From the IMG/VR virus record IMGVR_UViG_3300044731_002104: a stretch of DNA of 64,000 bases; one strand, given 5' to 3'. This document shows, in pieces, positions 12,099 to 27,150 of this stretch. The translations under genes were made by a program, and so were the position numbers. A model generated the notes under the pieces. The model searched no databases. It saw nothing but the letters and a program-made list of their open reading frames with translations, and had not been told where the DNA came from. Every line of letters begins with the position of its first letter. Position 1 is the stretch's first letter. The stretch is from an uncultured virus (IMG/VR IMGVR_UViG_3300044731_002104). Lineage: Duplodnaviria; Heunggongvirae; Uroviricota; Caudoviricetes.

Positions 12099-12349
12099 CT
12101 CATCTCACTCTCGATAACTTGTCTGTTGATTGAGTCGATGTTATCAAGCGGTTTCGTGGTATGGATTAAAACCAGTCGCAGCCGCAAGATGTGCATCTGG
12201 AAGATCGTACCCGGTCCCGCTTTTCAATTCCATATGTCAGCGCACTAGGGTACTGGGTAGTCTTCATCAGTGATTTATAAATGGTGGCCAGGGAGCAATT
12301 TGTCAGCTAAGCAGCAATCTCGGCTACGATCTTGGTAAAGGGAACCCAT

Positions 12350-12793
12350 ATGTCCACCTTTGCAAATCAACTCAAAAGCGAAATCAGCCGACTTGCCAAG
12401 AAGGAAGTCCGAGCTGAAACCCAAGCCTTGAAGAAGGCGTCGGCACAGTACCGAAGCGAAATTGCTGCACTCAAACGTCGCGTTGCCGGACTGGAAGCTC
12501 AGACCAAGAAACAGAGCAAGGGTGCTGCTCGTGCAAAACCTGCTGAAACTGCAGATGAGGATGTTGGCACCTCACTTCGATTCCGCGTAGCAGGCTTTGC
12601 AGCATTGCGCAAAAAACTGAACATCAGCGCTGCCGAGATGGGCAAGCTGCTGGGCGTGTCTGCCCAGAGCGTGTATCACTGGGAAACAGGCAAAACCAAG
12701 CCCCGGGCCAGTCAATTGGCCGCTATTGCCGCAGTGAGAAAATTGGGCAAGCGCGCAGTCGCCGCCAAGCTGGGCGATTCTGCTGAAGCTTGA
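12350..12793 (+). CDS. XRE-family HTH regulator with N-terminal coiled coil
   Basis: LRKKLNISAAEMGKLLGVSAQSVYHWETGKTKP. Confidence 0.85.
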   Translation: MSTFANQLKSEISRLAKKEVRAETQALKKASAQYRSEIAALKRRVAGLEAQTKKQSKGAARAKPAETADEDVGTSLRFRVAGFAALRKKLNISAAEMGKLLGVSAQSVYHWETGKTKPRASQLAAIAAVRKLGKRAVAAKLGDSAEA

Positions 12794-12831
12794 TGTTTCA
12801 AAACCCCAATTCAATACCAAGGAGAAACTGA

Positions 12832-13113
12832 ATGAACAAGGCTGAACTGATTGAAGCAATCGTCAAAGAAACCGAATTGTCGAAGGCTGCTGCCGCCCGC
12901 GCCCTCAATGCCGTGCTCGACACCATCGTCAAAACTGTGGCCAAGAAGCAGGACGTCCAGCTGATCGGTTTTGGCACCTTCAAGGCGGCCAAGCGCGCTG
13001 CCCGTACTGGCAAGAACCCCCGTACTGGTGAGAAGCTGAAGATTGCAGCGGCCACCGTGCCCAAGTTCAGCGCTGGTGCAGCCTTCAAAGCCGCCGTGAA
13101 CAAAAAGAAGTGA
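12832..13113 (+). CDS. hup: HU family DNA-binding protein
   Basis: MNKAELI...GFGTF...RAARTGKNPRTGE; AAGGAG RBS. Confidence 0.95.
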   Translation: MNKAELIEAIVKETELSKAAAARALNAVLDTIVKTVAKKQDVQLIGFGTFKAAKRAARTGKNPRTGEKLKIAAATVPKFSAGAAFKAAVNKKK

Positions 13114-13132
13114 TCTGACTTGCTCAGACGTG

Positions 13133-13157
13133 CGGCCCTTCGGGGCCGTTTCAGTTT
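13133..13157 (+). terminator. Rho-independent terminator after HU
   Basis: CGGCCC-TTCG-GGGCCG stem followed by TTTCAGTTT. Confidence 0.7.
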
Positions 13158-13591
13158 GCGATGGCCTGAAACTTTTCTTGCTGCTCACTCCAGAGGACCG
13201 GGATGGGGTGCTTGGTGAACCAATGCAAGTTCAGCCCCTTGGGCTGGGTGCCTTGAAGGATGCTTTCGATGATTTTGGGATCCAGCAGCGTCAAGCGCAT
13301 GCATTCGTTGACTGTGGCCTGATCCAGGCCCTCCTGCCTGGCAATTTCGACGCCACTGCGCACGATGCCCTCGTCGATGAGCCGCTTCCAGTAAAAGGCT
13401 CGGGTGAGTCCTTCAATTAATTTGGTGTCGGGCAGCCTGGCAAAGTCCTTGATCGCCTGCGCAGCGTTTTCCGGTGGCTCAACCACGCTGCGTCCACCGC
13501 GCTTGACGAACTTCAAGGGAATGAATGTGCTGAACTCCACAGGAGTTGCGGTGTTGGCCACGCCGTTGCTCACCGACTGTGCGTTATTCAT
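13151..13591 (-). CDS. Recombinase-associated conserved protein (HTH-like)
   Basis: RAFYW...EIARQEG...LTLLDP.IIESIL.G.QP; ATGA overlap with recombinase. Confidence 0.7.
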   Translation of the reverse strand: MNNAQSVSNGVANTATPVEFSTFIPLKFVKRGGRSVVEPPENAAQAIKDFARLPDTKLIEGLTRAFYWKRLIDEGIVRSGVEIARQEGLDQATVNECMRLTLLDPKIIESILQGTQPKGLNLHWFTKHPIPVLWSEQQEKFQAIAN

Positions 13592-14949
13592 GCTGCCTCC
13601 AATTCAAGCAGTTCATATTCAAGTTTTTCATATCCGGCCAGGTTCTTGGGCGGCACGCCGATCAGTGCTCCCCAAGCTTCAAATCGCCAATCCACATGCA
13701 AGCCTTCCGGTGCAACCGTGATGCGCTTGATGAGTGTGCGCACGATGTCTTGTTTGGCCTGCGTGGCCAACTGATCCCACAGGCCAGCCGTGTTTTTGAA
13801 GAACAGCACCATGGCTTCAGGTTCGGTCAGATCAGGGTTGATCACGCAAATCTGCTGCCAGCAGTTGTGGACCATCTGACCTGATCGCAGCACTTCGAGC
13901 ACCTTCTCCAACACGGAGTTCTCAATGCCCGCTGCAGGCAAGTTGGCAAACTCCACGGTGCCAGCCCCCATTTTTTGGTTTTTGTTGACCACGTAGTAGC
14001 GGTACAACTTGCCGGTGGTCTTGCGGGTGGCCATCGGCAGGTAGAGGTCTCCATCGGGTGTGAACATCATCCCGCGCAGCAAGAAGCCATGCCTGCATTT
14101 CTGTCCAAAGGTCTCACGAGCCCGGTCACGGCTGTTTTCGGCCATGATCTCTTGCACTCGGTCCCACAGCGACTGATCAATCAGTGCTTCGTGCTGACCT
14201 GGGTAAAAGTTGCCCTTGTGCCCAAGGTCACCGATGTAGAGGCGGTTGTGCAGGATGGTGTAGAGGGCCTGCTTGGTCAGTGGCTTGCCATTCTTGCTCC
14301 TGACCCCTTGCTCCACGAGTTGCTTGACCATCAATGTAGTTGAGCGTGTGGCGACAAACGAGTCAAAGATCTGCCGCACCACCTGGGCTTCCTCTGGTAC
14401 CGCGACCAGCTTACGGTTGTCCACGCAGTAACCCATCGGGACTTGTCCGCCCATCCACATGCCCTTGCGTTTGGAGGCTGCGATCTTGTCGCGGATGCGC
14501 TCGCCGGTCACCTCTCGCTCAAATTGGGCAAATGACAACAGGACGTTGAGCATCAGGCGCCCCATGGAGGTGGCCGAATTGATCTGCTGCGTGACCGAGC
14601 TGAAGCTTGCCTTGTACCGATCAAAGAGCTGGATCATCTTGGCGAAGTCCGCCAGCGACCTTGAGAGACGGTCGATCTTGTAGACCACCACGATGTCGAT
14701 CTTGCCGTCCTGAATGTCTCTGAGCAGGCGTTTGAGACCTGGGCGGTCCATATTGCCGCCTGTGAAACCAGGGTCCTCGTAGCTGTCCTCGACTGGCTCC
14801 CAGCCCTCCGAGCGCTGACTGGCAATAAAAGCAGCCCCAGCTTCCCGTTGGGCATCGATGGAGTTGAAGGTTTGATCCAGCCGCTCGTCCGAGGATACAC
14901 GGCAGTACACGGCGCATCGTTTGGGTGTGGGTTGTAGCGTCTCGCTCAT
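13588..14949 (-). CDS. Large serine recombinase (prophage integrase)
   Basis: CAVYCRVSS, DRPGL, VYKIDRLSRS, recombinase domain; start at ATG 14949. Confidence 0.92.
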   Translation of the reverse strand: MSETLQPTPKRCAVYCRVSSDERLDQTFNSIDAQREAGAAFIASQRSEGWEPVEDSYEDPGFTGGNMDRPGLKRLLRDIQDGKIDIVVVYKIDRLSRSLADFAKMIQLFDRYKASFSSVTQQINSATSMGRLMLNVLLSFAQFEREVTGERIRDKIAASKRKGMWMGGQVPMGYCVDNRKLVAVPEEAQVVRQIFDSFVATRSTTLMVKQLVEQGVRSKNGKPLTKQALYTILHNRLYIGDLGHKGNFYPGQHEALIDQSLWDRVQEIMAENSRDRARETFGQKCRHGFLLRGMMFTPDGDLYLPMATRKTTGKLYRYYVVNKNQKMGAGTVEFANLPAAGIENSVLEKVLEVLRSGQMVHNCWQQICVINPDLTEPEAMVLFFKNTAGLWDQLATQAKQDIVRTLIKRITVAPEGLHVDWRFEAWGALIGVPPKNLAGYEKLEYELLELEAA

Positions 14950-15416
14950 GCCTTCTTGCCTTTCAAGCCAAAGAAGGCGGGGCCCGACCATTGCGTGCCC
15001 GTGATCAGCTTGGCAATGGCCGACAAGCTTTTGTATTGATGGCCGTCGTATTCATAGCCGCCATCGGCCAGCACCGTGACTTTGTATTTCTTGCCGTCAA
15101 ATTCACGCAAGAGCGTGGTGCCTGGCAGCACTGTCCGGGTGGATGGAGCGGCGGTCTTGATTTTCGAAAAGCGGGCGCCGTAGTCGGCCAGCATGTCGCG
15201 GGTGCCGGTGGGCAGCGCACCATAGGCCTGCTCTTGCAGCTTGTAGCCCAAGCGTGACTCGATGTGCGTGCGATTGGGCCGGGCAGGCCTGCGCACAAAG
15301 AATTGATCCCACAGCGCCCAAAGCTCGGGCATTTTCATGTTCGAGAGCGCGTGGAGTTTTTCGGAGATTTCGCTGGTGCGCAGGATGTCGCGCATCGGCG
15401 GGGCGGTGTTTTTCAA
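14946..15416 (-). CDS. DUF2924-family protein
   Basis: PGTTLLREFDG...YKSLSAIAKLITGTQWSGPAFFGL; usual partner of such recombinases. Confidence 0.85.
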   Translation of the reverse strand: MKNTAPPMRDILRTSEISEKLHALSNMKMPELWALWDQFFVRRPARPNRTHIESRLGYKLQEQAYGALPTGTRDMLADYGARFSKIKTAAPSTRTVLPGTTLLREFDGKKYKVTVLADGGYEYDGHQYKSLSAIAKLITGTQWSGPAFFGLKGKKA

Positions 15417-15643
15417 GGCTGTGACTCCATATGAGTAGACGGGTTTGCATTGACGCTCTGGTAGGCATGGAAGTCGAGAAACTTGTCTCGATCAGTCGCA
15501 TATACCCAACTGCTGTTGGCCTGCGTGAGGGACTGGTGTTGATCAACGACCGCTTGTGCGATCAAGTGAGCGATTTGCGCAAGGGAGAGGTACCCGCTTT
15601 TCTCGGCCGGGTTGCCTTGGGCTGGGGTTGGGAAGTGGTCCAT
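15413..15643 (-). CDS. Small hypothetical protein upstream of DUF2924
   Basis: IAHLIAQAVV segment; overlaps next gene. Confidence 0.45.
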   Translation of the reverse strand: MDHFPTPAQGNPAEKSGYLSLAQIAHLIAQAVVDQHQSLTQANSSWVYATDRDKFLDFHAYQSVNANPSTHMESQP

Positions 15644-15808
15644 TGAGGGGCTTTGATTGATCAAATCTGACCCCAGAAATCGTAGCCAAAACACCCAAAT
15701 TCGAGTCTGTGTTTTAGAGGGCCATCAACACGCTACAGAGCACAAAGCCGCATGAATCCAGGCTTTTTGTGCGACTGCCAAGCAACCATGCGGCCTGCCG
15801 TGACGGTT

Positions 15809-15843
15809 TTGACAGATTTCTAAAAAGCTGTATATTTATCCAG
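15809..15843 (+). promoter_or_regulatory. sigma70 promoter overlapped by a LexA (SOS) box
   Basis: TTGACA 15809-15814, TATATT 15831-15836; CTGTATATTTATCCAG (CTG-N10-CAG) 15828-15843. Confidence 0.8.
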
Positions 15844-15937
15844 CAATCCGGCAAAACTCATCTCAAGCCCCAGGTCAACAGATCAGGGGGTTGAGACGCC
15901 TCATTGCCAAAACAAACAACAACAAAGGAGACAACGA

Positions 15938-17179
15938 ATGAGCCGCACTCAGACCTACGCCGACATCTTGCTGAACCTGCCTGTCGACGACACCCTCAAA
16001 ACCTTCATCGAGCGCCACACATTGCCTATGCCCGAGGGCTGGGTCTGGCATGACTCGATCCAAGCCTCCAAGAGCCTGATTGGCTTGATTCAGATGCACC
16101 CTAATGTTGCTATGCGCGACCGCATCGTGGCCGGACTGCACGCCAGCACGCTGCTGGCCCACCCCTTGGGCAAGCAGGCCATGTTTCAGGCTGCGCATGA
16201 CCGGCCGACGGAATTGATGGGACTCATCGCTTGCAAGAACGACCTGCACCGGGCCTTCTGGCTCTACGTCCATCACCCGGCGCTGTTTGAGGCGGCGGCC
16301 GAGATCGAATACCTGGACCACCACGGTCAACAAGCTCAGCAGCACGACTTGGGGCTCAAGGGGACCATCAAGCGTGACGAGGAGTCGATCGCTGCATTCG
16401 GTGATGCCATCAAAGGCTTCTACCAGCGGGAGTTGGGGTGTGGCGAGGTGTGCGTGGTCAATGTACTGGACCGGGCACGCGGCACGCAATTGATCTCTAT
16501 CCATGCCAAGGACCTGGCCACGGCCAAGTTGGAGTTTGAGGGCAGTCAGCTGCAGCGCAGGGTGGGCAGCCCGAACATCCACATGGTGCTGGAATACGCC
16601 CAAGCCACCGGTGTGGCCCGCACCATCATCCGTGGTGGCGCCAAGTACCACGCCATGTTGTGTGAGGCCTTCGCTAAGCACCTGCTTGGTGTGGATGCCG
16701 ATGCACAGCGGATCCAGACGCCGCGCCTGAACCTGTCCACGCTGCGCTTGGGGTTGAACATTCCGCAGGCGATTGATGACGGATTCGTCGGATTTCAGGT
16801 CAAGAGCGTGACCGTGGTCAGTGGATGCGGGCGACTCAAGATGGAATGCACGGCCAGTGCGTCCAGCGATCAACGCTGCGTGACGGAGCTGCTGCAGGAC
16901 TACTTCGTTGCTGAGAATCCGCTCGCTCGTGGCTGGACGATTCAGGCTGCTGTTCTCAACTTCTATCTGGCGCCGATGCGGGGCAAAAGCCGCTGCCAGG
17001 TGGTCAGTGTGGAGATCACCAGCAAGGGGCGACTAAACCTGCACAAGTTTGATGAGAAGCTGCGCGCCCAACTTGAGGGCTATCTGGTCCAGTTGGGCAT
17101 CTTGAAGGCGCAGCAGGTCCTCAAGACAGCACGAGAGCAGGAGGAGCCTGCGACCATGGACGGCAACTTGTTCGAGTGA
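15938..17179 (+). CDS. Hypothetical protein, first gene behind the SOS box
   Basis: 413-aa ORF with AAGGAG RBS. Confidence 0.8.
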   Translation: MSRTQTYADILLNLPVDDTLKTFIERHTLPMPEGWVWHDSIQASKSLIGLIQMHPNVAMRDRIVAGLHASTLLAHPLGKQAMFQAAHDRPTELMGLIACKNDLHRAFWLYVHHPALFEAAAEIEYLDHHGQQAQQHDLGLKGTIKRDEESIAAFGDAIKGFYQRELGCGEVCVVNVLDRARGTQLISIHAKDLATAKLEFEGSQLQRRVGSPNIHMVLEYAQATGVARTIIRGGAKYHAMLCEAFAKHLLGVDADAQRIQTPRLNLSTLRLGLNIPQAIDDGFVGFQVKSVTVVSGCGRLKMECTASASSDQRCVTELLQDYFVAENPLARGWTIQAAVLNFYLAPMRGKSRCQVVSVEITSKGRLNLHKFDEKLRAQLEGYLVQLGILKAQQVLKTAREQEEPATMDGNLFE

Positions 17180-17186
17180 GGTGTGA

Positions 17187-18158
17187 ATGGAGTTGACCCT
17201 CAATCAGCAAGCCATCAGCTTGGCCGCATTGATGTTCGTGCGAGGCAGTGCATCCTTTGAGAGCAGCCTGCACGATGAAGAAATTGCGGCTCTACAGGTT
17301 CTCAAACAGGTGAAGGCCGTTGTACCCGGTGTGGTCAACAGCCAGGATGCACTTTGCGCTTTCTGTGGCCTTTACCGTGGACCGATCTTCAGGACGGACG
17401 ATGGGCTCATGGTGCAGTGCCCGGACTGTGGTCCGTTTGCCCTGGATCCAGCCAGTCAGCGCAATTGGCGCCTGGACGATGAATGGCTGATCCGAAAGCT
17501 GCGTGGCGCACTGGACATCTCGCCACAAGCAAGCACCGCCCACATCGTCGATGGTGTGTGGGACATTGGTCGGTACAAGAAGCGGCCGGTGGTGTTGGCT
17601 CGCCGCATCGATCTGGTTGAGCGCCACGGGCTACGGATTTTTCATGGACCTGAGCCACGCAGTCAAAGCTGGGTCATCACGCCACGGCCGTTGGTGCGAC
17701 AACCGTTGGATCCGCTGGCGGGGATGGCTACTTGGTGGCAGCTCGAGGACCGGTTCGCCTTGCACGGTTTGGCATTGCGATTGCTCGATCCGGACCGGGG
17801 TGAAAAAGCCGATGCCCTGCAAGACGGCATCCCGAGCGTGGCTGTCCATGGGCCGTTCAGTGAGGGCTTTGCCTGGGTGCATCTGGGAGATTGGCCGCAT
17901 GGCCCCATTCGATTGACTGATGCCCAAGCGCATCTCTTTGCAGCACTCTGGAAGCACCGTAACCAGCCACAGTCTGCTGAGTTCCTCATGAGAGAAGCGG
18001 GGTTGGGCAGTGAGCGACCGATCGATGTCTTCAAGTTGAAAACATCCAACCGTGGCGACCCTCGGTATGAGGGGCCGATGCAGGCCTACAAAACGCTGGT
18101 CATCCGTCAACGGCGTAATGGCCTTTATCAGCTGAATTGCGCTGCGGGATCGGCTTGA
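17187..18158 (+). CDS. Hypothetical protein with zinc ribbon and probable C-terminal winged helix
   Basis: CAFC..CPDC; C-terminal LTDAQAHLFAALW...NGLYQL. Confidence 0.75.
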   Translation: MELTLNQQAISLAALMFVRGSASFESSLHDEEIAALQVLKQVKAVVPGVVNSQDALCAFCGLYRGPIFRTDDGLMVQCPDCGPFALDPASQRNWRLDDEWLIRKLRGALDISPQASTAHIVDGVWDIGRYKKRPVVLARRIDLVERHGLRIFHGPEPRSQSWVITPRPLVRQPLDPLAGMATWWQLEDRFALHGLALRLLDPDRGEKADALQDGIPSVAVHGPFSEGFAWVHLGDWPHGPIRLTDAQAHLFAALWKHRNQPQSAEFLMREAGLGSERPIDVFKLKTSNRGDPRYEGPMQAYKTLVIRQRRNGLYQLNCAAGSA

Positions 18159-18236
18159 AATGAACTGTGCACGGGAGCATTTGCGACGGCAGCCATCCAT
18201 GCGGACCACACTTTTACCCCTTTCATGGCGACAAAA

Positions 18237-18288
18237 TTTCGCTGTCAGCGAAAAAATATTTGACTTTGGCGAAAGTGTTTGGTATATT
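18237..18288 (+). promoter_or_regulatory. Retron promoter with upstream palindromic operator
   Basis: TTTCGCTG-T-CAGCGAAA 18237-18253; TTGACT 18260-18265, 17 nt, TATATT 18283-18288 with TGn extension. Confidence 0.75.
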
Positions 18289-18294
18289 TCACGC

Positions 18295-18575
18295 TGAGGC
18301 TGACAGAGATAACTGTCGATTTAGAGGAGTGCTTCGGCGCTCTGTGAGGTCGTGAGACCTCGACTACTCGCCTGGCACATCGCCGCTAGGAGTACGCCGC
18401 CACCCGGATGCTCTTGGCCTAGTGCAGCTGGTGCGAGCCTGCCCGGGACGACCCCGGGCAGGCGTTAGAGAAGTGAAGGGATATAGCCGCCGCTTGCTCT
18501 GCTTGGTTACGGACGACAGCCACGGCTCCGCGCAATCTCGTGCGGATGTCGGTTGGTGTAGCCAAGGAGAACAGT
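18295..18575 (+). ncRNA. Putative retron ncRNA (msr/msd plus translational-control leader)
   Basis: Consecutive hairpins 18302-18317, 18327-18342 (UUCG), 18346-18361 (GUGA), 18437-18463 (11-bp perfect), 18495-18573; upstream of retron RT. Confidence 0.75.
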
Positions 18576-18576
18576 C

Positions 18577-18720
18577 ATGCAAATTGACGTTCAGAAGCCT
18601 CCCAAACGGCGAGTGCTGAAGAGCCGATGGTCATGGCTGACGCATCCTGGCACGATTCGACTGGCGTTTTCGCTGGTTCGTTTAGTGTCGGAGATCGCGA
18701 AAGTCATTGACAAGTTCTGA
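18577..18720 (+). CDS. 47-aa small basic/amphipathic protein, putative retron effector (absent from ORF track)
   Basis: AAGGAG RBS 18564-18569; MQIDVQKPPKRRVLKSRWSWLTHPGTIRLAFSLVRLVSEIAKVIDKF. Confidence 0.72.
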   Translation: MQIDVQKPPKRRVLKSRWSWLTHPGTIRLAFSLVRLVSEIAKVIDKF

Positions 18721-18766
18721 GGTTCTTTGGCATCCCTTCTCTTTCAATTTAATACTGGAACAGGAA

Positions 18767-19075
18767 ATGTTGAATCGGGCACTGAGATTACTGAGGACGT
18801 ACCATCAACTCACGCAGGTTGAGTTGGCAAAGCGCCTTGGCATTTCAAATTCGTACCTGAGTGAACTTGAAAGCGGCGACAAGACCCCGCCGCTAGACCT
18901 GTTAGACAAATATTCGGACATCTTCAAGATGCCCACGTCTTCCATCTTGTTGTTCTCTGAGTCGCTGACTGGAGAGGGACGGAGGAGTGGAAAAATCCGG
19001 GTGGGTGCTGCGGAAAAGATTCTTCGCTTGCTGGAATGGCTTGAAGAGCGTGATGCAATCCAGAAGCCCGCCTAA
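18767..19075 (+). CDS. XRE/Cro-like HTH protein of retron operon
   Basis: LTQVELAKRLGISNSYLSELESGDKTP; ATG 18767. Confidence 0.88.
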   Translation: MLNRALRLLRTYHQLTQVELAKRLGISNSYLSELESGDKTPPLDLLDKYSDIFKMPTSSILLFSESLTGEGRRSGKIRVGAAEKILRLLEWLEERDAIQKPA

Positions 19076-19922
19076 ACGCTATTCACTCGAAAGGTCGCCT
19101 CTATATCGATTGCGAGGCAAGGGAAAGTTCGAATCCCTTCTTGGTGTGCAGTGGGACGCCGTGCCCAAGCTATTGGACGTCAAACACTACCGTGTTTGGA
19201 TAAATGAAAAGGGCCGAGAGATTCAAGCTCCTCATGGCTGGCTCGAGCAAGTGCATCGGCGCATTGGGAAACTACTTGCCCGGATTGAACTCCCCGACTA
19301 TGTCTATTCTCAGAAGGGGCGGTCGTACGCTGACAACGCTCGTGCTCATAAAGGGGAGACTCCGTTAATCAAGACCGACATCAGTCGTTTTTATCCCAGC
19401 GTGAACCGAAATGCTGTTCTGCGGATGTTTGTTGATGACTTTGAATGTGCGGTCGATGTGGCACAGAGGCTGGCCGACATCTGTTGCTACAGACAAATGC
19501 ATCTACCTACCGGTAGTGCCCTCAGCGGGCGAGTAGCGTACTTCGCAAAGCGTCACATGTTTGACGAAATCGCATATGCAGCCAGCAGTGTTGGCTGCAA
19601 AATGACCATTTATGTTGATGATGTAACTATCTCTGGCTTGGCTGCCACCAAGACCCTGTTGGGATCGGTGCGTCAAATTATCAGGCGCCATGGCTTACGA
19701 ACGCAGGGCCGGAAGTCCAAAACCTATGCTAGTGGTGCAGCAAAGTCCGTAACTGGGACAGTATTGGTTGGGAGCGAAGTTCGATTGCCCAATATCCGTC
19801 ACTTGAGCATGCACAACGCCCGTCAAGCGTTGCAGAACGCTTTGCCAGCTGAACAAGATCGAATGCGGCGGTCGTTGGAGGGGCGTATCCAGGAGGCCAA
19901 GCAAGTGCTAGGTGGAGCTTGA
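19053..19922 (+). CDS. Retron-type reverse transcriptase
   Basis: NARAH (NAxxH), KTDISRFYPS, LPTGSALS, YVDD, VTG; overlaps HTH 3' end. Confidence 0.92.
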   Translation: MQSRSPPKRYSLERSPLYRLRGKGKFESLLGVQWDAVPKLLDVKHYRVWINEKGREIQAPHGWLEQVHRRIGKLLARIELPDYVYSQKGRSYADNARAHKGETPLIKTDISRFYPSVNRNAVLRMFVDDFECAVDVAQRLADICCYRQMHLPTGSALSGRVAYFAKRHMFDEIAYAASSVGCKMTIYVDDVTISGLAATKTLLGSVRQIIRRHGLRTQGRKSKTYASGAAKSVTGTVLVGSEVRLPNIRHLSMHNARQALQNALPAEQDRMRRSLEGRIQEAKQVLGGA

Positions 19923-19988
19923 CTCTAAATTTCTCGATGGCCGAAGTCTGCTAAAAATACGCCGATGTCGGCATGTCAGCTGTCTCAA

Positions 19989-20630
19989 TTAGCCGCCAAA
20001 TGCGCTAGCGGCAGCTCCGATGAGCGATACTATTTTGCCAGCGGTTATATTTTCTTTGCGGAAGCGCGCGAATTTTTGTTTTAGTGTCGGGGCACCTTCA
20101 AGTATCCGTTCGGATGCGGCCTGATCTTCAATATGCTGACGCACAAGTGTATTGAATTGATCTTCAGCATGTTCCATGTTTTCGACGATAAGTTCAAAAA
20201 GCCGAACAGGGGCTATTCGGAGCACTTCAGCATTGAATGTGTACTCGGCAAAGTGCCCCTTTGACTTCAGGAAATTTTCAAGCTCTCTTTTTTCAATGGG
20301 ATCTTCTAGGGATATTTCAATTTTTTCATTCGTAACAGTAGTGTATTGATGCCCTTTAGAGAGCCGAATGATGATGTTTCCCAGAATGGCTTTGGTGTTT
20401 ATGACTTCATGTTTTAACGCGGATGCAAGCCTGAATGTCTTCACTCTCGATTCCGGAATCTTAAGTAGCGCAGAAAGTTCATAGTTTGACTTTCCTTTGT
20501 TCTCGCGCGCTTGAGTTATGTGATGGAACAAAAGTAGATCAATCTCGCGTTTCGACGGGCTACCAAATCCCGAGTCGAGATACATTGACACAATTTCAGT
20601 TGCCAACTTTTCTTTTTCGTCGCGCGTCAC
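19989..20630 (-). CDS. Hypothetical low-GC protein downstream of AbiEii
   Basis: 213-aa ORF with AAGGAG RBS and GTG start. Confidence 0.7.
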   Translation of the reverse strand: MTRDEKEKLATEIVSMYLDSGFGSPSKREIDLLLFHHITQARENKGKSNYELSALLKIPESRVKTFRLASALKHEVINTKAILGNIIIRLSKGHQYTTVTNEKIEISLEDPIEKRELENFLKSKGHFAEYTFNAEVLRIAPVRLFELIVENMEHAEDQFNTLVRQHIEDQAASERILEGAPTLKQKFARFRKENITAGKIVSLIGAAASAFGG

Positions 20631-20664
20631 AAGAGACTCCTTTTGTATGTGGCCAAGCGCTCAG

Positions 20665-21678
20665 TCATCTGTTGATGAGGCTTTCGAGTTCGGCACAAGT
20701 GCATATGATGTCTGCGAAACTGGGCTGATGCGTTGCAAGTAACCCGTCTTCCAGCATTGCCATGTAATCTTTCTCGAGTGCCTCCAAGGCGTCGCTTTTA
20801 GGAATAATCTGAATTTCAGTGCTGACGGCTGTCTTGTAGTCGATCGGCTTCTTCTCGACATCTTTTTCGGCAAAGAACATGGACTTGTGTTCAGCCACTG
20901 CATGAGCAAGTTCAAGGTCATCGATCGCGACTTGAGCATGTCCTGAGTTGGCCATTGCGGCCAGGTCATACCAGTGCCGTGAATAGCGCTCGCCGCGCAG
21001 TCGGCCCTGTTTGCAGTACACATGTGCTGCCGTCGCTTTTTCCCAGAAGGTCCGCTCGGCGGCCATCACCAAAGGCTGGGCCGTCGGGAACAGAATTCCA
21101 TTAATCACCGGTGCCATGTCGCATGTGACGGCGTGACGCTGGTGAGGCTCACCTGTGGCGCGCCCACCAAACTCCAGCTGAATAGTGGATGCCGCATAGC
21201 CAGTGCCGACCTTGATGGGTTCGTAGGCCAGGATCAGCTTTTCTTTCTCATTGCCCGCGAGTGACAGGTTGGCCTGCAGACCATCACGCGTCAGTGCCGA
21301 CAGCAGAATCGGAAGCACTTCGCCCTCAATCCACTGCGGCAATCGATCGCGAACCCGGTCTGTGATTTTTTTTGCTTGACTCGCTGAAGCAGGGATCGGA
21401 TTGCCATCGCGCAGCAGATCCGGAACCACCTCGCGGATGTCGTACGTCAGGTCAATGTCCTCTGAAAAGCGGTCAATGATCTTGTAGACCTTGGACAGCG
21501 ATGTGCCACCTTTGAAGGTCAGTTTCTCCGCAAGGGCTGATTCGTAGATGGCAGAAAGTGTCCACACCACCCAGATGTCTTTTTCCAGAAGGTGCGCAGG
21601 GCGGCCAGTCTGTGCGGCAGCCACTTCGAGTGCTTCAGCCTGGTCTTCGCGGCTGAGAGTGAACCATGAATCAGCCAA
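20665..21678 (-). CDS. abiEii: AbiEii/AbiGii nucleotidyltransferase toxin
   Basis: LEKDIWV, FKGGTSLSK, RFSEDID, ERTFWEK, SRHWYD. Confidence 0.92.
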   Translation of the reverse strand: MADSWFTLSREDQAEALEVAAAQTGRPAHLLEKDIWVVWTLSAIYESALAEKLTFKGGTSLSKVYKIIDRFSEDIDLTYDIREVVPDLLRDGNPIPASASQAKKITDRVRDRLPQWIEGEVLPILLSALTRDGLQANLSLAGNEKEKLILAYEPIKVGTGYAASTIQLEFGGRATGEPHQRHAVTCDMAPVINGILFPTAQPLVMAAERTFWEKATAAHVYCKQGRLRGERYSRHWYDLAAMANSGHAQVAIDDLELAHAVAEHKSMFFAEKDVEKKPIDYKTAVSTEIQIIPKSDALEALEKDYMAMLEDGLLATHQPSFADIICTCAELESLINR

Positions 21679-22264
21679 TGGCCACCTCGCTTACCGCCTT
21701 GGCCATCCAACTTGGCAACCCTGCTCGAGCCTGGCGCATGGCCTCCCACTCTTGGCTGGGCAGTTTGCTTCTGAGCACTTCCAAGACCATGGGCGCCTGC
21801 TCGGGCCCGAGCCAAATGAGCGCGCGAATGGCTTTTCCGGCCGGACGCTTGCCTAGCAACATTTGCCACCGATTGCCATGTTTGAGCTCGACCTCCCGAT
21901 TTCCCAGTTTCAGTCGCCTAGAAGGACCAGAAGTCAGGAAGACCTCGCGTGTGGGTACCTGTGTGGTCAACCCCAGTGCATTGGCCTCTGCAGCGCCGCT
22001 GGCCACCACAGTCTCACCGCTGGTGGACTCGATCGCTTCGACAACGGCTTCGGTCGAGGGAGGGCGCACGCCAAAGCGGCCCTGAACGGGCAGAGAGTAG
22101 GCGCCTCGACCAACCCTGAGGAGCTTCCCTTCACGTGCCAGGCGAGAGAGGGTCTGATCAATTGCCGCCCGAGAGCCTAGGTGCAGGAATTCCTTGGGCG
22201 AAAGCAGTCCTCCCTCGGGGAGGGATTGCGCTTGCGAGAGGATGGATAGGGCGAGTTGGCTCAT
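21671..22264 (-). CDS. AbiEi-like antitoxin (DUF6088 type)
   Basis: N-terminal wHTH (SRAAIDQTLSRL..EG.L.RVGRGAY), AANALGLTTQVP-like motif; overlaps toxin start. Confidence 0.85.
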   Translation of the reverse strand: MSQLALSILSQAQSLPEGGLLSPKEFLHLGSRAAIDQTLSRLAREGKLLRVGRGAYSLPVQGRFGVRPPSTEAVVEAIESTSGETVVASGAAEANALGLTTQVPTREVFLTSGPSRRLKLGNREVELKHGNRWQMLLGKRPAGKAIRALIWLGPEQAPMVLEVLRSKLPSQEWEAMRQARAGLPSWMAKAVSEVAIG

Positions 22265-22276
22265 GGCTAGGCTCTG

Positions 22277-22308
22277 TTTGTCAGAAGTTTACTTCACTTT
22301 CTGACAAA
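22277..22308. promoter_or_regulatory. Inverted repeat upstream of AbiE operon (likely autorepression operator)
   Basis: TTTGTCAGAA-N12-TTCTGACAAA. Confidence 0.65.
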
Positions 22309-22466
22309 AAGGCAAGCTAGGGGGAATTGAAGAGGAGTTGAGCGGGTCAGCCGGTGATTAAAGAACTGGAGATATCGCCAAAGTTCTTTATTCAGTTCCT
22401 TATCAGTTCTTCATTGATTTCCTGAAATAGCAGCGTTGTCCCCCAACTCTTCGAAAGGAGTTACCA

Positions 22467-22751
22467 ATGCTGCTTGCAACACCAGCCCTTGAGGCGCCAG
22501 TTTTCCTGAGCGCCGCTTCCCCCGAATCCACCATGCCCAAACAGCTGGTGCTGACCGAGGCTGATTTGGCCTCCCGATGGGCCATGAGCCCCAAAACCCT
22601 GCAGCGCTGGCGTATGACTGGCAATGGCCCGACCTATCTCAAGCTGGGCAAACGGGTGAGCTATCCGCTCAACGCCGTGATCGCCTTCGAGAACTGCGTC
22701 CAGCATGTCTCGACCTCAAAGCGCATCCCAGGGAAGGCAGGTGCGGCATGA
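22467..22751 (+). CDS. AlpA/excisionase-like HTH protein
   Basis: LTEADLASRWAMSPKTLQRWR..G.GP.YLKLGKRV.Y. Confidence 0.85.
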   Translation: MLLATPALEAPVFLSAASPESTMPKQLVLTEADLASRWAMSPKTLQRWRMTGNGPTYLKLGKRVSYPLNAVIAFENCVQHVSTSKRIPGKAGAA

Positions 22752-23233
22752 ATCACCTGCAATTGCAGCAAGCTGCACTGCCCGACCTCTCCGTGAGCCA
22801 GATCAGCCGTCTGCCCAAAGACCAGCTGGCCCATTTCAGCAACGCGGTGCAGCAGCTCCATGACTGGACGCTGCAGATGCGTGGCCGCATCAACAGGGCC
22901 ATGGAAATCCGTTACGCCGACCAGATCCGCCATGCCGGAAGCCTGGGCCAGGAGGAGGCTGCCAAGTTCCGCATTGACGACGGCGACCTGCAGATCGATG
23001 TCTCGCAGCCCAAAGAAATCGTCTGGGACCAGCAGCACCTGTCCCAGATTGCCGAACGAATGGTTGTCGCCGGTGACCGGGTGCAGGACTTCATGCAAGT
23101 CCAGTTTTCGGTAGCCGAGCAGGACTATGCCCGCTGGCATCCGCTGCTGCGCGCAGCCTTCCAACCAGCCCGCAAAGAGCTGATCACAGAACCCACCTTC
23201 CAGATCCGCTGGGTCGGTGATGTCCAGCTTTGA
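22748..23233 (+). CDS. Phage hypothetical protein
   Basis: ATGA overlap; K.I.WDQ..L motif common in such prophage early regions. Confidence 0.7.
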   Translation: MNHLQLQQAALPDLSVSQISRLPKDQLAHFSNAVQQLHDWTLQMRGRINRAMEIRYADQIRHAGSLGQEEAAKFRIDDGDLQIDVSQPKEIVWDQQHLSQIAERMVVAGDRVQDFMQVQFSVAEQDYARWHPLLRAAFQPARKELITEPTFQIRWVGDVQL

Positions 23234-23282
23234 GCACGTCGAGCCCAAATTCACCCAACAACCCAAAACAAGGAAATTTCAA

Positions 23283-23999
23283 ATGAACCACGACAGCTAC
23301 AACCAAGCCGCAAGCTATGGCCAACCCTCCAACCACAGCGCCCCGGGCGCCTGGTGTGACTTCAATGATGCCGATGCCCAGCAAGGCGAGTTCAACCTGA
23401 TTCCCAAAGGTACCCAGGCGCTGGTGCGCATGGCCATCAAGCCCGGCGGCTATGACGACGCCAGCAAGGGCTGGACGGGCGGCTATGCCACGGCATCGGA
23501 TGAAACCGGTGCAGTTTTCCTGTCCTGCGAATTCGTGCTGCTCACAGGCCCCTTTGCCAAACGCAAGATCTGGAGCAATGTTGGCTTGCACTCGAACAAG
23601 GGTCCGACCTGGGCGCAGATGGGCCGAAGCTTCATCAAGGCCGTGCTCAACAGCTCGCGCAACATCCACCCGGATGACGTCAGCCCCGAGGCTGGACGCG
23701 CTCGTCAGATCCGCAGCTTCGGTGATCTCGATGGTGCCGAATTCGCCGCCCGTATTGGCATTGAAAAAGATGGACAGGGCGAGTACCGCAACATCATCCG
23801 ACTGGTGATCGAGCCCGACCACAAGGAGTACGCAGATCTGATGCAGGCCAAGCTGCAACGTGATGGGGGCATGGGCGGGGGCTCCGGTGGTGCCCCTGCG
23901 GCTGCTTTTCCCGCATCAGCAGCGCCCGCACCCCAGTCGGGGGCCAGCTACACCCCCCGCCCGGGCAATGCTCAGGGTCGACCAGCATGGGCGCAGTGA
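23283..23999 (+). CDS. Phage SSB-like protein (DUF669-like)
   Basis: DFNDA...LIPKG..., flexible tail ending RPAWAQ. Confidence 0.65.
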   Translation: MNHDSYNQAASYGQPSNHSAPGAWCDFNDADAQQGEFNLIPKGTQALVRMAIKPGGYDDASKGWTGGYATASDETGAVFLSCEFVLLTGPFAKRKIWSNVGLHSNKGPTWAQMGRSFIKAVLNSSRNIHPDDVSPEAGRARQIRSFGDLDGAEFAARIGIEKDGQGEYRNIIRLVIEPDHKEYADLMQAKLQRDGGMGGGSGGAPAAAFPASAAPAPQSGASYTPRPGNAQGRPAWAQ

Positions 24000-24011
24000 T
24001 GGCGAGGCTGC

Positions 24012-24452
24012 ATGAAATGCTGGGTGTGCTCCCGTCAAGCCAAAGGCTTCGGCCACGTGGATCTGCGCTTCAAGGTGGGGCACCCCAAGCGGTACCCCAT
24101 CGACTGGATCTTCTGCTCACGGCGTTGCCAGGAGTGTTTTCACCGGCTGTATGCCGTTGGGATTCGCACGCTCGAGCGCGAAGGCAGCTTGCCGACCCAT
24201 GCGGATTTGGAGCCTGGCGTGATTGATCCGACCGAAGCAGAATTGGCCGCCATGGAGCAATGCCTCAAGCCGCTGGGTGAAGCCGCCGGTGAGATCGGTA
24301 TGGACCGACCGTTGTCGAGCTACACCCAGCAAGAGGCCCTGCGGCTGATCAATGCTGTGGTCACGACCTATGTCGAGGCCATGGTGCAGGAACACGAGCG
24401 CAGCAAGTACCCACCTGTTCGCATGCAACTGGACCAATCGCCCTTGCGCTGA
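24012..24452 (+). CDS. DUF6511-like zinc-finger phage protein
   Basis: CWVC...FCSRRCQ; IDPT.AE. Confidence 0.7.
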   Translation: MKCWVCSRQAKGFGHVDLRFKVGHPKRYPIDWIFCSRRCQECFHRLYAVGIRTLEREGSLPTHADLEPGVIDPTEAELAAMEQCLKPLGEAAGEIGMDRPLSSYTQQEALRLINAVVTTYVEAMVQEHERSKYPPVRMQLDQSPLR

Positions 24453-24548
24453 TTGTCCTGACTCCACCGCAGGACTCAGCGTCCTGCGGTCTCCAACTTC
24501 TACCAACCAATGCGGGTGATGCAGATCACCTGCAGGGATGAACTTTTC

Positions 24549-24839
24549 ATGAATAAACCTCAATCCTTGGCTTCGCCATTGAGCCTGCAAGCTGCAGACG
24601 ATAACGACTTCAGTGATGAACCTCTGCTCACAGCCAAGCGTGCATCGAAGGCACTGAATTTGCCGCTGTACTACTTCACCAAGACCGCCAAGCGCAAAGC
24701 TCTGGGGCTGCCGTTCTACTGCGTCAATCGGCTTGTCCGCTTCCGACTGGGTGAGTTGCATCAGTGGCAGATCGCCTATGCCCGCAAGCTGCAGGAAGAA
24801 CAAGATGCGGCGATCGAAGTGGGAGGTGCGAATGCTTGA
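24549..24839 (+). CDS. Small HTH/excisionase-like protein
   Basis: LPFYCVNRLVRFRLGEL. Confidence 0.6.
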   Translation: MNKPQSLASPLSLQAADDNDFSDEPLLTAKRASKALNLPLYYFTKTAKRKALGLPFYCVNRLVRFRLGELHQWQIAYARKLQEEQDAAIEVGGANA

Positions 24840-27150
24840 TTTCAACGATGAGCCCACATCGAAAACACGCAAAGTAACAGCGGGTGCCAACGACGCTGCA
24901 CGTGAGAAAGCAGAAATTCGATCGGCCCTGAACGATCAGCTGGCCCTGCTGGTACTGGACATCTGGCCTTCAGGCAAACGCCGCCAGGACAAATACCTGG
25001 TGGGCGATGTGATGGGTGGCACGGGCGACAGTCTGGAGCTGCTGCTCTATGGTCCAAAGGCGGGTCTGTGGACCGATCGCGCCACCAACGAAGGTGGCGA
25101 CATCTTCGATCTGATAGCCCGCTACTACAGCCTCGATGTTCAGGCCCAGTTCCCTCAGGTTCTGGACAAAGCCCGGGACTGGCTCGGCCGTGTCTCGGCT
25201 ATGCCATCCACTGCGGTGGCCGCAAGCCATAACAAGGCCCCGGTGGTCGATGAACTCGGTCCGGCCACGGCCAAATGGGACTACCAGGATGCCAACGGCA
25301 AACTCATCGCGGTGGTGTATCGCTATGACCCAGAGCCAGGCCGCAAGGAGTTCAGGCCCTGGGATGTGGCTCGCCGCAAGATGTCCCCTCCTGAGCCGCG
25401 TCCGCTGTACAACCAACCGGGCATGCTCAAGGTCGATCAGGTGGTTCTGGTCGAGGGGGAGAAGTGCGCCCAAGCCCTGCTTGAATTTGGCGTGTGCGCC
25501 ACCACGGCCATGCATGGCGCCAATGCACCTGTCGAGAAAACAGACTGGTCGCCACTCTCAGGCAAGCATGTGTTGATCTGGCCCGATCGTGACAAACCTG
25601 GTTGGCTCTACGCCGACCATGCTTCCCAAGCCATCATGAGAGCCGGTGCCAAGTCATGTGCCATCTTGCAGCCGCCTGCAGAAAAGCCCGATGGCTGGGA
25701 TGTGGCCGATGCAGTGCAAGACGGTTTTGACATTGCTGGATTTCTGGCTGTGGGCGAGAGGGTTCCTGTGGTGCATCAGATCGATGCGCATGCGCCCCTG
25801 GAGCTTGACGATGGCATCGACTACACGAACGAGGATGGGCTGGCCATGGCCTTTTCTCAGCAGTTCGCCGAGGACTGGCGCTACTGCGCCCCATGGAGCA
25901 AGTGGCTCGTGTGGAACGGGGTGCGCTGGAACATCGACAAAGCCTTGTATGTGATGCATCTGTGTCGCCTGATCTGCCGTGCAGCAGCGATGCAAGCGGA
26001 TCGCGACAAGCTCAAAGGACGCTTGGCCAGCTCTGGAACGATCTCGGCCATCGAGCGAATCGTGCGCTCAGAGCCGCGCCACAGTGCCACGGTCGAGGAG
26101 TGGGACTCCAGTATCTGGCTCCTGAACACGCCCGGCGGCATTGTGGACCTGCGCACCGGTGCCCGTGGTCCACATGACCGCGACCGACGCATGACCAAGG
26201 TGACCACAGCCACGCCGCAAGGCGATTGCCCCGTCTGGCGCAATTTCCTGGTGAATGTCACTGGCGGTGATGATGAGCTTCAAGACTACCTGCAGCGCGT
26301 GGTGGGGTATTGCTTGACGGGTGACATCAGCACCCATGCGCTCTTCTTCCTGTACGGCACAGGGGCCAATGGCAAGTCGGTGTTTGTGAACGTGATCTCC
26401 ACGGTGCTTGGCGACTATGCCGCAAACGCTCCCATGGACACCTTCATGGAATCGCGCTCTGACCGGCACCCCACCGACCTGGCTGGACTGCGTGGTGCCC
26501 GCTTTGTCTCGGCAACCGAGACGGAGCAGGGAAGGCGTTGGAACGAATCCAAGATCAAGGCGATCACGGGGGGGGACGACATCACGGCGCGCCTGATGCA
26601 CCAGGATTTCTTCACCTACAGGCCGCAGTTCAAGTTGCTCATCGCAGGCAACCACAAGCCTGCGATCCGCAACATTGATGAGGCCATGCGCCGCAGGATG
26701 CACCTGATCCCCTTCACGATCACGGTCCCTCCAGAAAAGCGTGATCCGCTCCTGACCGAGAAGCTGCTTGCCGAGCGCGACGGAATCATGGCCTGGGCGG
26801 TGCAGGGCTGCCTGCTTTGGCAAAGCCAGGGCCTGGTCCAACCCAAGTCCGTGGTGAGTGCGACCGAGGAGTACTTCGAGGCCGAGGACGCCATGGGTCG
26901 GTGGATGAGCGAGCGCTGCAACCTGGGTATCAACCACAAGGCACTTACGGCCACGCTGTTCAACGACTGGAAGCAGTGGGCCGAACTCAGTGGTGAGTAC
27001 ATAGGCACGCAGCGCCGCTTCTCGGACGCCTTGCTGGCCAGACGGTTCGAGAAGTGGCGCAACTCCATGGGGGTGCGTGGCTATCAGGGGATCGACCTCA
27101 AGCAGCCCACTTCCTTGCCTACCCGGTCCTATCCATACAACGATGATTGA
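24832..27150 (+). CDS. P4-family primase/helicase (TOPRIM + D5/SF3)
   Basis: LVEGEKCA, WPDRD, GWDVAD, GTGANGKS, D5-like C-terminus. Confidence 0.92.
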   Translation: MLDFNDEPTSKTRKVTAGANDAAREKAEIRSALNDQLALLVLDIWPSGKRRQDKYLVGDVMGGTGDSLELLLYGPKAGLWTDRATNEGGDIFDLIARYYSLDVQAQFPQVLDKARDWLGRVSAMPSTAVAASHNKAPVVDELGPATAKWDYQDANGKLIAVVYRYDPEPGRKEFRPWDVARRKMSPPEPRPLYNQPGMLKVDQVVLVEGEKCAQALLEFGVCATTAMHGANAPVEKTDWSPLSGKHVLIWPDRDKPGWLYADHASQAIMRAGAKSCAILQPPAEKPDGWDVADAVQDGFDIAGFLAVGERVPVVHQIDAHAPLELDDGIDYTNEDGLAMAFSQQFAEDWRYCAPWSKWLVWNGVRWNIDKALYVMHLCRLICRAAAMQADRDKLKGRLASSGTISAIERIVRSEPRHSATVEEWDSSIWLLNTPGGIVDLRTGARGPHDRDRRMTKVTTATPQGDCPVWRNFLVNVTGGDDELQDYLQRVVGYCLTGDISTHALFFLYGTGANGKSVFVNVISTVLGDYAANAPMDTFMESRSDRHPTDLAGLRGARFVSATETEQGRRWNESKIKAITGGDDITARLMHQDFFTYRPQFKLLIAGNHKPAIRNIDEAMRRRMHLIPFTITVPPEKRDPLLTEKLLAERDGIMAWAVQGCLLWQSQGLVQPKSVVSATEEYFEAEDAMGRWMSERCNLGINHKALTATLFNDWKQWAELSGEYIGTQRRFSDALLARRFEKWRNSMGVRGYQGIDLKQPTSLPTRSYPYNDD

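Follow-up and report, generated by a model that had tools for sequence, protein, structure and literature searches.

We report that a 64,000-nt stretch of DNA from an uncultured Caudoviricetes virus (IMG/VR record IMGVR_UViG_3300044731_002104), referred to below as the window, carries at positions 18237-19922 a Type VI retron that is in all likelihood complete, is apparently active, and forms accessory cargo of a prophage. We assign this combined reading a probability of about 82%; that the locus is a Type VI retron is, taken by itself, very likely. On the + strand, a structured leader is followed by the genes for a small protein (SP), a helix-turn-helix (HTH) protein, and a reverse transcriptase (RT), which corresponds to the published Type VI arrangement of non-coding RNA (ncRNA), SP, HTH, and RT (Mestre 2020; Garcia-Rodriguez 2026, bioRxiv 10.64898/2026.04.27.721009; published systems are described here and below from the parts of the sources that were available). 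As far as the sequence can be read, all Type VI features that could be checked are present at the locus. Phage defence has been published for the Type VI retrons Vpa2, Eco12, and Sen3, and by analogy we infer that the locus synthesizes multicopy single-stranded DNA (msDNA) and acts against phages; neighbours of a defence-island kind, found beside the cassette in relatives, point to such a role as well. According to the Type VI literature, such retrons often yield no detectable msDNA unless a trigger is present. Phage-borne Type VI retrons are known, and Type VI-like retrons of cultured temperate phages have already been published (PMC8541194). The locus adds a further example, with an SP family and an RT lineage outside those studied.

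The RT gene (19053..19922, +) starts with ATG and encodes 289 amino acids (aa). Its product matched the PADLOC model RT_VI with an E value of 6.1e-78 (260 bits, profile positions 1-271 of 279), while the runner-up among the PADLOC RT models, RT_III-A, reached 107 bits (2.9e-31). It was also recognized by Pfam RVT_1 (1e-9) and by phrog_2825 (2.6e-61). NCBIfam holds no Type VI model, and its best RT match, retron_St85_RT, stayed at 78 bits, under the cut-off of 235. The motifs NAxxH and VTG define retron RTs. Both had been claimed, together with YVDD, in an earlier reading of the DNA that used the letters alone (the sequence-only reading), and all three were located: NARAH at 19335-19349 (residue 95), YVDD at 19611-19622 (residue 187), and VTG at 19749-19757 (residue 233), all on the + strand. 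Residues Y187, D189, and D190 are unchanged in seven relatives, and the nearest solved structures are the RTs of retrons Ec86 and Ec67. The protein is less than 40% identical to every RT in the phage and plasmid collections. Type VI RTs constitute a group within retron clade 3 (Mestre et al. 2020).

The HTH gene (18767..19075, +) encodes a Cro/C1-type protein of 102 aa and overlaps the RT gene by 23 nt, just as had been noted for an XRE-type HTH gene. PADLOC HTH_VI matched the protein with 7e-34 over profile positions 1-91 of 92, and Pfam HTH_3 with 1e-11. The TTG at 18707, which opens the HTH open reading frame (ORF), was considered as a start codon and ruled out, since HTH_VI aligns from residue 1 of the protein that begins at ATG 18767. 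All 16 relatives have an HTH protein of 102 aa with 77-100% identity. HTH cluster 2_1 of the Type VI retrons comprises Cro/C1-type proteins of 91-110 aa that are encoded upstream of, or overlapping with, the RT gene (Mestre et al. 2020). With the RT and the HTH protein both matched best, by far, by RT_VI and HTH_VI, and with a gene order equal to the published layout, we place the locus in Type VI, the class proposed in the sequence-only reading. At position 7 the HTH protein carries an arginine; the exchange R7D is toxic in Retron-Vpa2, the two residues being compared here by number only.

Four retrons of temperate phages, Burkholderia KS5, Shewanella vB_SspS_MuM16-1, Yersinia vB_YenM_56.17, and Escherichia P2_2H1, likewise gave RT_VI and HTH_VI as best PADLOC matches (4/4). 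They share with the locus in the window the carriage by a phage and a small ORF directly upstream of the HTH gene, and three of the four also show the paired 7-nt motif described below. They differ in that their RTs are only 32-39% identical to the one studied here and their SPs are not alignable with the SP of the window. Their places in the phage genomes, within structural clusters or flanked by replication genes and the portal gene, differ too, the retron in the window lying beside an integrase. Salmonella phage S.Kent 1-2-1 was considered as a carrier of Retron-Sen3 and rejected; its RT gene follows a 75-aa ORF, there is no HTH gene, and the published SP primer found no match.

The near-consensus sigma70 promoter that had been described upstream of these genes is present at 18260..18288 (+) as TTGACT-17-TATATT with an extended -10 TG. 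It has 10/12 matches to the sigma-70-type consensus and a predicted transcription start at ~18294-18297. By itself this match is weak, as a scan gave two promoter-like sites per 2.4 kb with 1.6 expected. The promoter position is kept, however, in the relatives and in distant loci, where a -35-like hexamer follows the palindrome discussed below. Twenty public sequencing runs contain the stretch. Six of them are river metatranscriptomes with 66-79% of the sampled words, and in each of the four that were examined contigs run over the cassette. In three of the four runs (X15, X17, X18), high-depth RNA contigs start at 18310, 18313, and 18324, with a depth of 0-4 upstream and 25-47 downstream of these starts. 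The depth step lies 15-30 nt after the predicted transcription start in all three, and the contig start at 18313 abuts library-adapter letters. The four river runs stem from one year and one habitat and may belong to one campaign. These data give no more than a hint of a genuine promoter and of transcription of the cassette in nature, namely in rivers. The contig starts at 18310-18324 fall into the 3' arm of the first stem-loop and could be due to ordinary 5' fall-off, to processing of the RNA, or to a stop during cDNA synthesis. In X17, the depth of 25 over 18310-18895 compared with 4.8 and 2.5 further on was considered as an enrichment of the hybrid RNA (hyRNA), an interpretation that we discarded because contig depths cannot rank the parts of an operon.

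The hyRNA is predicted to extend over 18295..18766 (+) and to consist of the leader, the SP coding sequence, and a downstream repeat arm, as judged from its fold and from the consensus structure. The leader, described previously as hairpin-rich and ~280 nt long, covers ~18295-18576, which is roughly 282 nt. Its minimum free energy (MFE) has a z-score of -4.0 relative to shuffled sequences, and leader plus SP gene reach -6.3. A consensus fold with compensatory changes was obtained across the relatives, indicating that the leader structure is conserved. From 16 sequences (14 distinct rows), RNAalifold predicted 150 pairs, with 98.3% of the cells paired. Nine pairs change on both sides, while shuffles gave a mean of 4.1 with 0/500 reaching 9, and slid controls gave 1-4. 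Ten non-redundant sequences chosen from 17 distinct ones, including that of a viral contig whose RT is 64% identical (L037), yielded the same architecture with 154 pairs, 21 of them compensatory. In our view, the covariation lends the predicted structure moderate support.

At its 5' end, the predicted RNA forms three short stem-loops (helices 1-3 at 18301-18318, 18326-18343, and 18345-18362, +), which resemble an msr part; L006, another relative, and L037 contribute compensatory changes in helices 2 and 3. They are followed by a long stem with a variable middle at 18368..18436 (+, helices 4-5), which, going by the descriptions of Retron-Vpa2 and Retron-Sen3, is the candidate main template for reverse transcription (msd). 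No other part of the alignment varies as strongly, and its pairing is largely kept. Next comes a perfect 11-bp hairpin, GCCTGCCCGGG-ACGAC-CCCGGGCAGGC, at 18437..18463 (+, helix 6), with two compensatory pairs and a loop, ACGAC, that is invariant across the 17 distinct leader sequences. The full msDNA of Retron-Vpa2 consists of a long stem-loop that is extended at its 5' side by 23 nt, in which a further, essential stem-loop lies (bioRxiv 10.1101/2025.10.22.683967). Because a long stem with a short hairpin on its 3' side would give such a layout, we propose that 18368-18470 serves as the template.

The remaining helices of the predicted structure involve the SP gene. IR1 (18470..18482, +, helix 7) is the 5' arm of a long-range inverted repeat and pairs with IR2 (18732..18744, +), the 3' arm, which lies past the SP stop codon, so that the repeat flanks the SP gene. 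One pair of IR1/IR2 is exchanged between A-U and G-C in 3/14 distinct rows, those of the window's subgroup, and a second exchange occurs in one row. With L037 added, there are three compensatory pairs, and further exchanges are seen in L006 and L037. Positions 18486-18496 are predicted to pair with SP codons 9-13. A riboregulator-like helix of 17 pairs (helix 9, +) is formed by a 5' arm at 18498-18517 and a 3' arm at 18552-18570, the latter containing the ribosome site AAGGAG (18565-18570), and a small hairpin at 18574-18588 is predicted over the SP start codon. In the ribosome-site helix, 14/17 pairs never vary. The helix and its surroundings are identical in the 17 distinct sequences save for a few single-base changes, even in L037 with its RT of 64% identity, and the region is conserved more tightly than the coding sequences.

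The SP gene, the hidden 47-aa ORF of the sequence-only reading, was found at 18577..18720 (+) with an ATG start, AAGGAG 6 nt before it, and a coding signature. The leader set comprised 19 sequences, the window and 18 loci; L015, L018, and L019, which offered no upstream DNA, were dropped, and 16 sequences were distinct. In all 16, the SP ORF is intact with 46-48 aa, and insertions and deletions are multiples of three. Of 48 columns each, 8, 12, and 24 vary at codon positions 1, 2, and 3, and the summed ratio of nonsynonymous to synonymous polymorphism (pN/pS) is 0.22 in the SP frame compared with 4.2 and 1.5 in the other frames. These patterns show that the SP gene is under coding selection and is very probably translated. 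A word-based search returned 15 clusters with 77-94% identity, none of them named. When 1.84 billion representatives were searched with a profile, 29 clusters passed E<=0.001 and nine of them <=1e-10. For the family alignment, we took 18 clusters of 44-55 aa and omitted 11 of other lengths. The 18 clusters are 35-72% identical to the SP of the window and share the pattern KP.KRR ... SWL.RP.T.R.A ... LRL ... A[KR]..D. No match to the SP was obtained in the protein family libraries Pfam, PADLOC, PHROGs, and NCBIfam. In an Atlas look-up, no entry reached 0.9, and the nearest named proteins, the type I toxins TisB (0.81) and DinQ (0.77), were at chance level.

Using a close alignment, AlphaFold2 predicted that the SP is basic and disordered at its N-terminus and helical over residues 17-22 and 24-46, with a mean predicted local distance difference test (pLDDT) score of 78 and values of 84-96 in the C-terminal part. 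This fold agrees with the description of published SP toxins, which are small, helical, and dependent on a hydrophobic helix at the C-terminus for their toxicity (Type VI literature). As the SP is the shown effector in Retron-Vpa2 and Retron-Sen3, the 47-aa protein would, by analogy, be toxic as well. A predicted complex of HTH protein and SP had a score of 0.00, which, the SP fold being uncertain within that run, speaks neither for nor against an interaction.

A 7-nt direct repeat has one copy in the putative template and one in the ribosome-site helix. GGACGAC occurs at 18446-18452, in and around the loop of the 11-bp hairpin, and again at 18511-18517, in the 5' arm of the ribosome-site helix, that is, at -131 and -66 from the SP start. 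Corresponding pairs are GGGCGAG/GGGCGAG at -107/-47 in Shewanella MuM16-1, TGGCGAC/TGGCGAC at -107/-47 in Yersinia YenM_56.17, and GGGCGAC/GGGCGAA at -121/-64 in P2_2H1. In MuM16-1 and P2_2H1, the first copy of this GG[AG]CGA[CG]-type motif is likewise located at a hairpin apex. By chance alone, exact 7-mer repeats are expected a few times per ~330 nt, and the range of positions was chosen with the data already known. The case for the repeat would rest on the recurrence of both place and sequence among Type VI loci. In the hyRNA of Retron-Vpa2, a conserved 7-nt direct repeat has one copy in the msd loop and the other in the riboregulator, and in the proposal of Zhang et al. (bioRxiv 10.1101/2025.10.22.683967) the ribosome site is freed when the DNA copy hybridizes with the second repeat.

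By analogy with Retron-Vpa2, a mode of action can be outlined. The sigma-70 promoter, perhaps controlled by the HTH protein via the adjoining palindrome, would produce the hybrid RNA, which would carry the message for the SP as well as the template for reverse transcription, made up of stem 18368-18436 and hairpin 18437-18463. With the ribosome site and the start codon of the SP locked in helices, no toxin would be made, and RT and HTH protein would sit on the RNA. A phage, most likely through recombination proteins or proteins inhibiting RecBCD, might then allow the single-stranded DNA (ssDNA) made by the RT to accumulate. The DNA copy of the hairpin loop (GTCGTCC) would pair with the second GGACGAC inside the ribosome-site helix, the helix would open, the SP would be translated, and the infected cell would stop growing.

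We give such a Vpa2-like translational control roughly even odds, and we lean toward it because the ribosome-site helix is frozen, the repeat occurs as a pair, and the SP is short. Retron-Vpa2 of Vibrio parahaemolyticus (bioRxiv 10.1101/2025.10.22.683967) has in common with the locus the order of structured RNA, SP, HTH, and RT, with the SP message inside the structured RNA. In both, helices (predicted ones in the window) cover the ribosome site and the start codon, and the 3' end is joined back to the leader through inverted repeats. Both have a long stem with a short hairpin after it; if GGACGAC is the equivalent of the Vpa2 repeat, this hairpin would in both bear one copy of the 7-nt repeat, the second copy preceding the SP ribosome site. 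The small SP, 55 aa there and 47 aa here, has a hydrophobic C-terminal helix. The host lineage is different, and the likeness is judged by the published description rather than by sequence.

A Sen3-like mode of action, published for another Type VI lineage, appears less likely here. The SP would always be made and be neutralized by the HTH protein after translation, ssDNA would be produced constitutively, and loss of host RecBCD activity during infection would free the toxin. In line with this possibility, the SP gene adjoins the HTH gene, conservation is strong in each of them, and inverted repeats flanking the SP gene are a feature described for the Sen3 lineage. Retron-Sen3/cl2075 (bioRxiv 10.64898/2026.04.27.721009) resembles the locus in that its ncRNA lies within ~280 nt of the SP start and has a long internal stem with a variable middle. 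In addition, the SP ribosome site is sequestered, and IR1-IR2 flanks the SP gene with compensatory changes. The SPs of that lineage, however, have 75-79 aa and an N-terminal extension. The 47-aa SP lacks the ~25 residues by which the 79-aa Sen3-type SPs are extended and is nearer to the 55-aa SP of Vpa2, and the invariant ribosome-site helix and the paired 7-nt repeats are predictions of the Vpa2 model. The Vpa2-like and Sen3-like modes may, moreover, not exclude each other.

The palindrome TTTCGCTG-T-CAGCGAAA at 18237..18253, located 6 bp upstream of the -35 box, is a candidate operator for the HTH protein. Its first base is the start assigned to the retron in the sequence-only reading. The core, TTCGC-N5-GCGAA, covers 18238-18252. 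The pattern TTCGC-N5-G[CT]GAA has a single site in the window, which alone is not significant, as 17/100 shuffles reach two matches. The palindrome is kept in every close relative with sufficient upstream DNA and in L037. Of the distant phage Type VI loci, 3/4 possess it before a -35-like box (KS5, MuM16-1, and YenM_56.17). In relatives and distant loci alike, it precedes the -35-like hexamer by 5-9 bp and the SP start by 306-339 nt. A GCGAA half-site inside the promoter spacer is found here (18269-18273), in a group of relatives with 82% identity, and in YenM. In P2_2H1, the palindrome is absent, and the recognition helix of the HTH protein reads IPKEKIVELESG instead of ISNSYLSE[IL]ESG.

Retron-Sen3/cl2075, too, possesses a conserved element at its 5' edge that is short and palindromic. 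The 5' edge of the cl2075 ncRNA is formed by an 18-nt '5'-conserved stem-loop' with a 5-bp stem, whose deletion or mutation abolishes defence and which was interpreted as RNA (Garcia-Rodriguez, bioRxiv 10.64898/2026.04.27.721009). The palindrome in the window is possibly its counterpart. It differs in lying upstream of the predicted -35 box and of the RNA contig starts, so that it may act as DNA. The words operator and palindrome do not occur in the available text of the Zhang and Garcia-Rodriguez preprints.

We suggest, tentatively and at somewhat less than even odds, that in Type VI retrons the HTH protein uses the 5' palindrome at the -35 box as its DNA operator and that this element is not, or not only, a functional RNA. 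This suggestion derives from the fact that the sequence itself, beyond its pairing, is kept between retrons whose RTs are 32-39% identical, always 5-9 bp before a -35-like hexamer, and that the sole distant locus without the palindrome, P2_2H1, also differs in its HTH recognition helix. It is kept alive by the promoter predicted between the palindrome and the conserved RNA and by the RNA contigs, which begin downstream. If true, the HTH protein would gain a second role, autoregulating the hyRNA level besides restraining RT or SP, and an element so far interpreted as RNA would receive a simple, testable explanation. Half-site words of the palindrome also occur inside the SP coding sequence (18667-18675 and 18695-18704), namely TTTCGCTG at 18668 and GCGAAAGT at 18697. 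They are complementary to the copies in the promoter region and may be due to chance or represent further contact sites of the HTH protein on DNA or RNA.

Relatives of the RT were recovered from several collections. Among contigs from one genome per species, 6 of 67 candidate stretches encoded a relative (71-83% identity); four of these six are metagenome-assembled genomes titled Thiobacillus, Ramlibacter, Accumulibacter, and Zoogloeaceae, and the others are titled Peptococcaceae and Moraxellaceae. The sequence-only reading had suggested a betaproteobacterium as host. A search of 400 genomes with the DctP protein of the window returned two hits of 44-45% identity. Metagenome contigs gave 14 of 412 candidate stretches (61-100%), and viral contigs one relative at 99% and L037 at 64%. 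An HTH alignment search of viral contigs returned 29 loci, two of which (L037, L038) contain a Type VI RT, the others being generic XRE loci. Homology to relatives in other contexts runs from 18233-18234, close to the palindrome, to ~19680-19880. Since homology with differently placed relatives starts and stops at these points, the retron is, judging by the alignments, a discrete cassette of ~1.65 kb with the palindrome as its left border. The cassette is flanked by a type I restriction specificity-like gene in L006 (named by reading its sequence, not by a family match), by AbiTii in L014, and by a DnaG-like primase in L017. In the 82% group (L001 3867-5020, L002, L003, L004, L011, and partly L016), a ShosT/PsyrT-like phosphoribosyltransferase gene (PADLOC ~1e-9) overlaps the RT stop codon by 4 nt and is followed by a gene for a 187-aa partner. 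This pair, absent from the window, could be a neighbouring Shosta/PsyrTA-like system or an addition to the retron operon in that lineage.

The claim that the retron is carried by a prophage was borne out by an integrase module, an excisionase-like gene, head and tail genes, and a provirus record. The serine-integrase module to the left of the cassette spans 13151-15694 and includes a recombinase-like gene (13151-13591), a large serine integrase gene (13588-14991), and DUF2924 (14946-15416). To the right lies an excisionase-like gene (22467-22751), after which genes for a D5-type primase, a methylase, terminase, portal, protease, capsid, tape measure, and a GpJ-like tail tip extend to ~52 kb. 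The IMG/VR provirus record G006 is 94% identical over 12832-27008, retron included. The cassette has a G+C content of 0.53 compared with 0.59-0.61 for the phage genes. A comparison of 10.5-13.7 kb with 50.5-64 kb for direct repeats resembling attachment (att) sites gave a longest exact match of 16 nt, inside genes, and nothing convincing. Serine integrases do not require att direct repeats.

We consider it very unlikely that the cassette serves the prophage itself, through addiction and maintenance or through control of lysis and lysogeny, with the HTH protein as regulator and the SP punishing loss of the element. The cassette does reside in the integrase-proximal accessory region beside an AbiE pair, and inactivation of the HTH protein is lethal in Vpa2 and Sen3, which is reminiscent of addiction. 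The same 1.65-kb cassette, however, occurs in unrelated contexts (restriction specificity-like gene, AbiTii, ShosT-like pair), as is the pattern of defence islands, and the Type VI retrons that were tested defend against phages. Least probable is an untranslated 47-aa ORF whose region is kept as RNA only, in a system that would have no effector protein. In favour of this view, the leader as a whole matches the ORF approximately in conservation, heavy pairing is predicted for the ORF region too, and the protein family libraries hold no match. Against it, the excess of third-position variation, the low pN/pS in the SP frame alone, the indels in threes, the strong AAGGAG before the ATG, a 29-cluster family that keeps length and motif down to 35% identity, and the effector role of the SP in two Type VI retrons all speak for a protein.

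Several points weigh against the assignment of an active, prophage-borne Type VI retron with the structure and mode of action outlined above. An Rfam scan of 17000-21000 at E<=1 gave zero matches. The RNA structure was derived from the same alignments that were used for counting compensatory changes, and the relatives are close, with a mean column identity of 85-91%. Because the ribosome-site helix is invariant, covariation neither supports nor opposes it, and its case is a nucleotide conservation above that of the coding sequences. The complement of 18367-18470, folded as ssDNA, was no better than shuffles (z -1.45), its 5' hairpin alone being robust. In KS5, the 7-nt motif is present at offsets that do not fit the SP call made there. 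Zhang et al. give no letters for their repeat in the text, and GGACGAC is its presumed equivalent. By its length, the SP does not belong to clusters 2075_1, 2760_1, and 3272_1, whose members have 75-79 aa (Mestre et al. 2020) and are thus longer. A comparison of the SP profile with the small ORFs of MuM16-1 and YenM_56.17 by hhalign was not significant; in the literature, the SPs of Sen3 and Vpa2 are likewise described as having no significant sequence similarity. The contigs from the river runs cannot give strand, true ends, or level, parts not covered carry no meaning, and in two runs a contig continues past the RT stop codon into a convergent gene for a 213-aa protein. Finally, the IMG/VR record that matches this DNA with full identity starts only at 31141, from where it extends to 64000 and beyond, leaving the retron outside.

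The mechanism of Type VI retrons was resolved only in 2025-2026 and in two lineages, to which the locus adds a well-resolved member from freshwater bacteria. Its family of 47-aa putative toxins, with 29 clusters, falls outside the named SP clusters of 75-79 aa. The close relatives constitute a natural data set in which the ribosome-site helix and both repeat copies are frozen while the rest of the RNA drifts in a compensatory manner, which is what a model of msDNA opening a riboregulator predicts. The general picture of Type VI retrons is left unchanged by the locus.

Further genes surround the cassette. Between the integrase module and the palindrome, 15938-18158 (+) encodes proteins of 413 aa (phrog_37634, 4.6e-36) and 323 aa (no match), possibly further cargo of the prophage. 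The convergent ORF downstream of the retron (19989-20630, -, 213 aa, G+C 0.44) had no match in Pfam, PADLOC, PHROGs, NCBIfam, or Atlas. It is kept solely within the same prophage family and not with the retron cassette. An AbiE pair at 20665-22264 (-), ~740 bp downstream of the retron, represents a second defence or toxin-antitoxin module in the accessory region and consists of an AbiEii nucleotidyltransferase toxin of 337 aa (PADLOC 1.8e-96) and an AbiEi antitoxin of 197 aa (3.1e-62).

The provirus element that is 94% identical at 12832-27008 (L031, an IMG/VR record of 16.5 kb) continues after ~800 bases with a capsid gene 85% identical to 37346-38774. It is without ~10 kb present here, from methylase to portal, and would be a shorter or rearranged relative of the prophage. 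At the left end of the window, a tRNA-Lys gene (2152-2227) is followed by a stretch of lower G+C content (~0.51) with genes for an N6 DNA methylase (2816-4090), proteins without assigned function, an ORC/CDC6-like ATPase (8264-10465, Pfam 1.7e-106), DUF2971, and an HTH protein. This region, 2152-13000, gives the impression of a distinct island beside the prophage or of a composite element's far end. At the other end, 55229-63102, within the IMG/VR viral call, encodes a 2-oxoglutarate (2OG)-Fe(II) oxygenase-like protein, a radical SAM protein, a FAD-dependent halogenase-like protein, and a LodA-type L-lysine epsilon-oxidase of 989 aa, which are either unusual cargo or host genes swept into the viral call.

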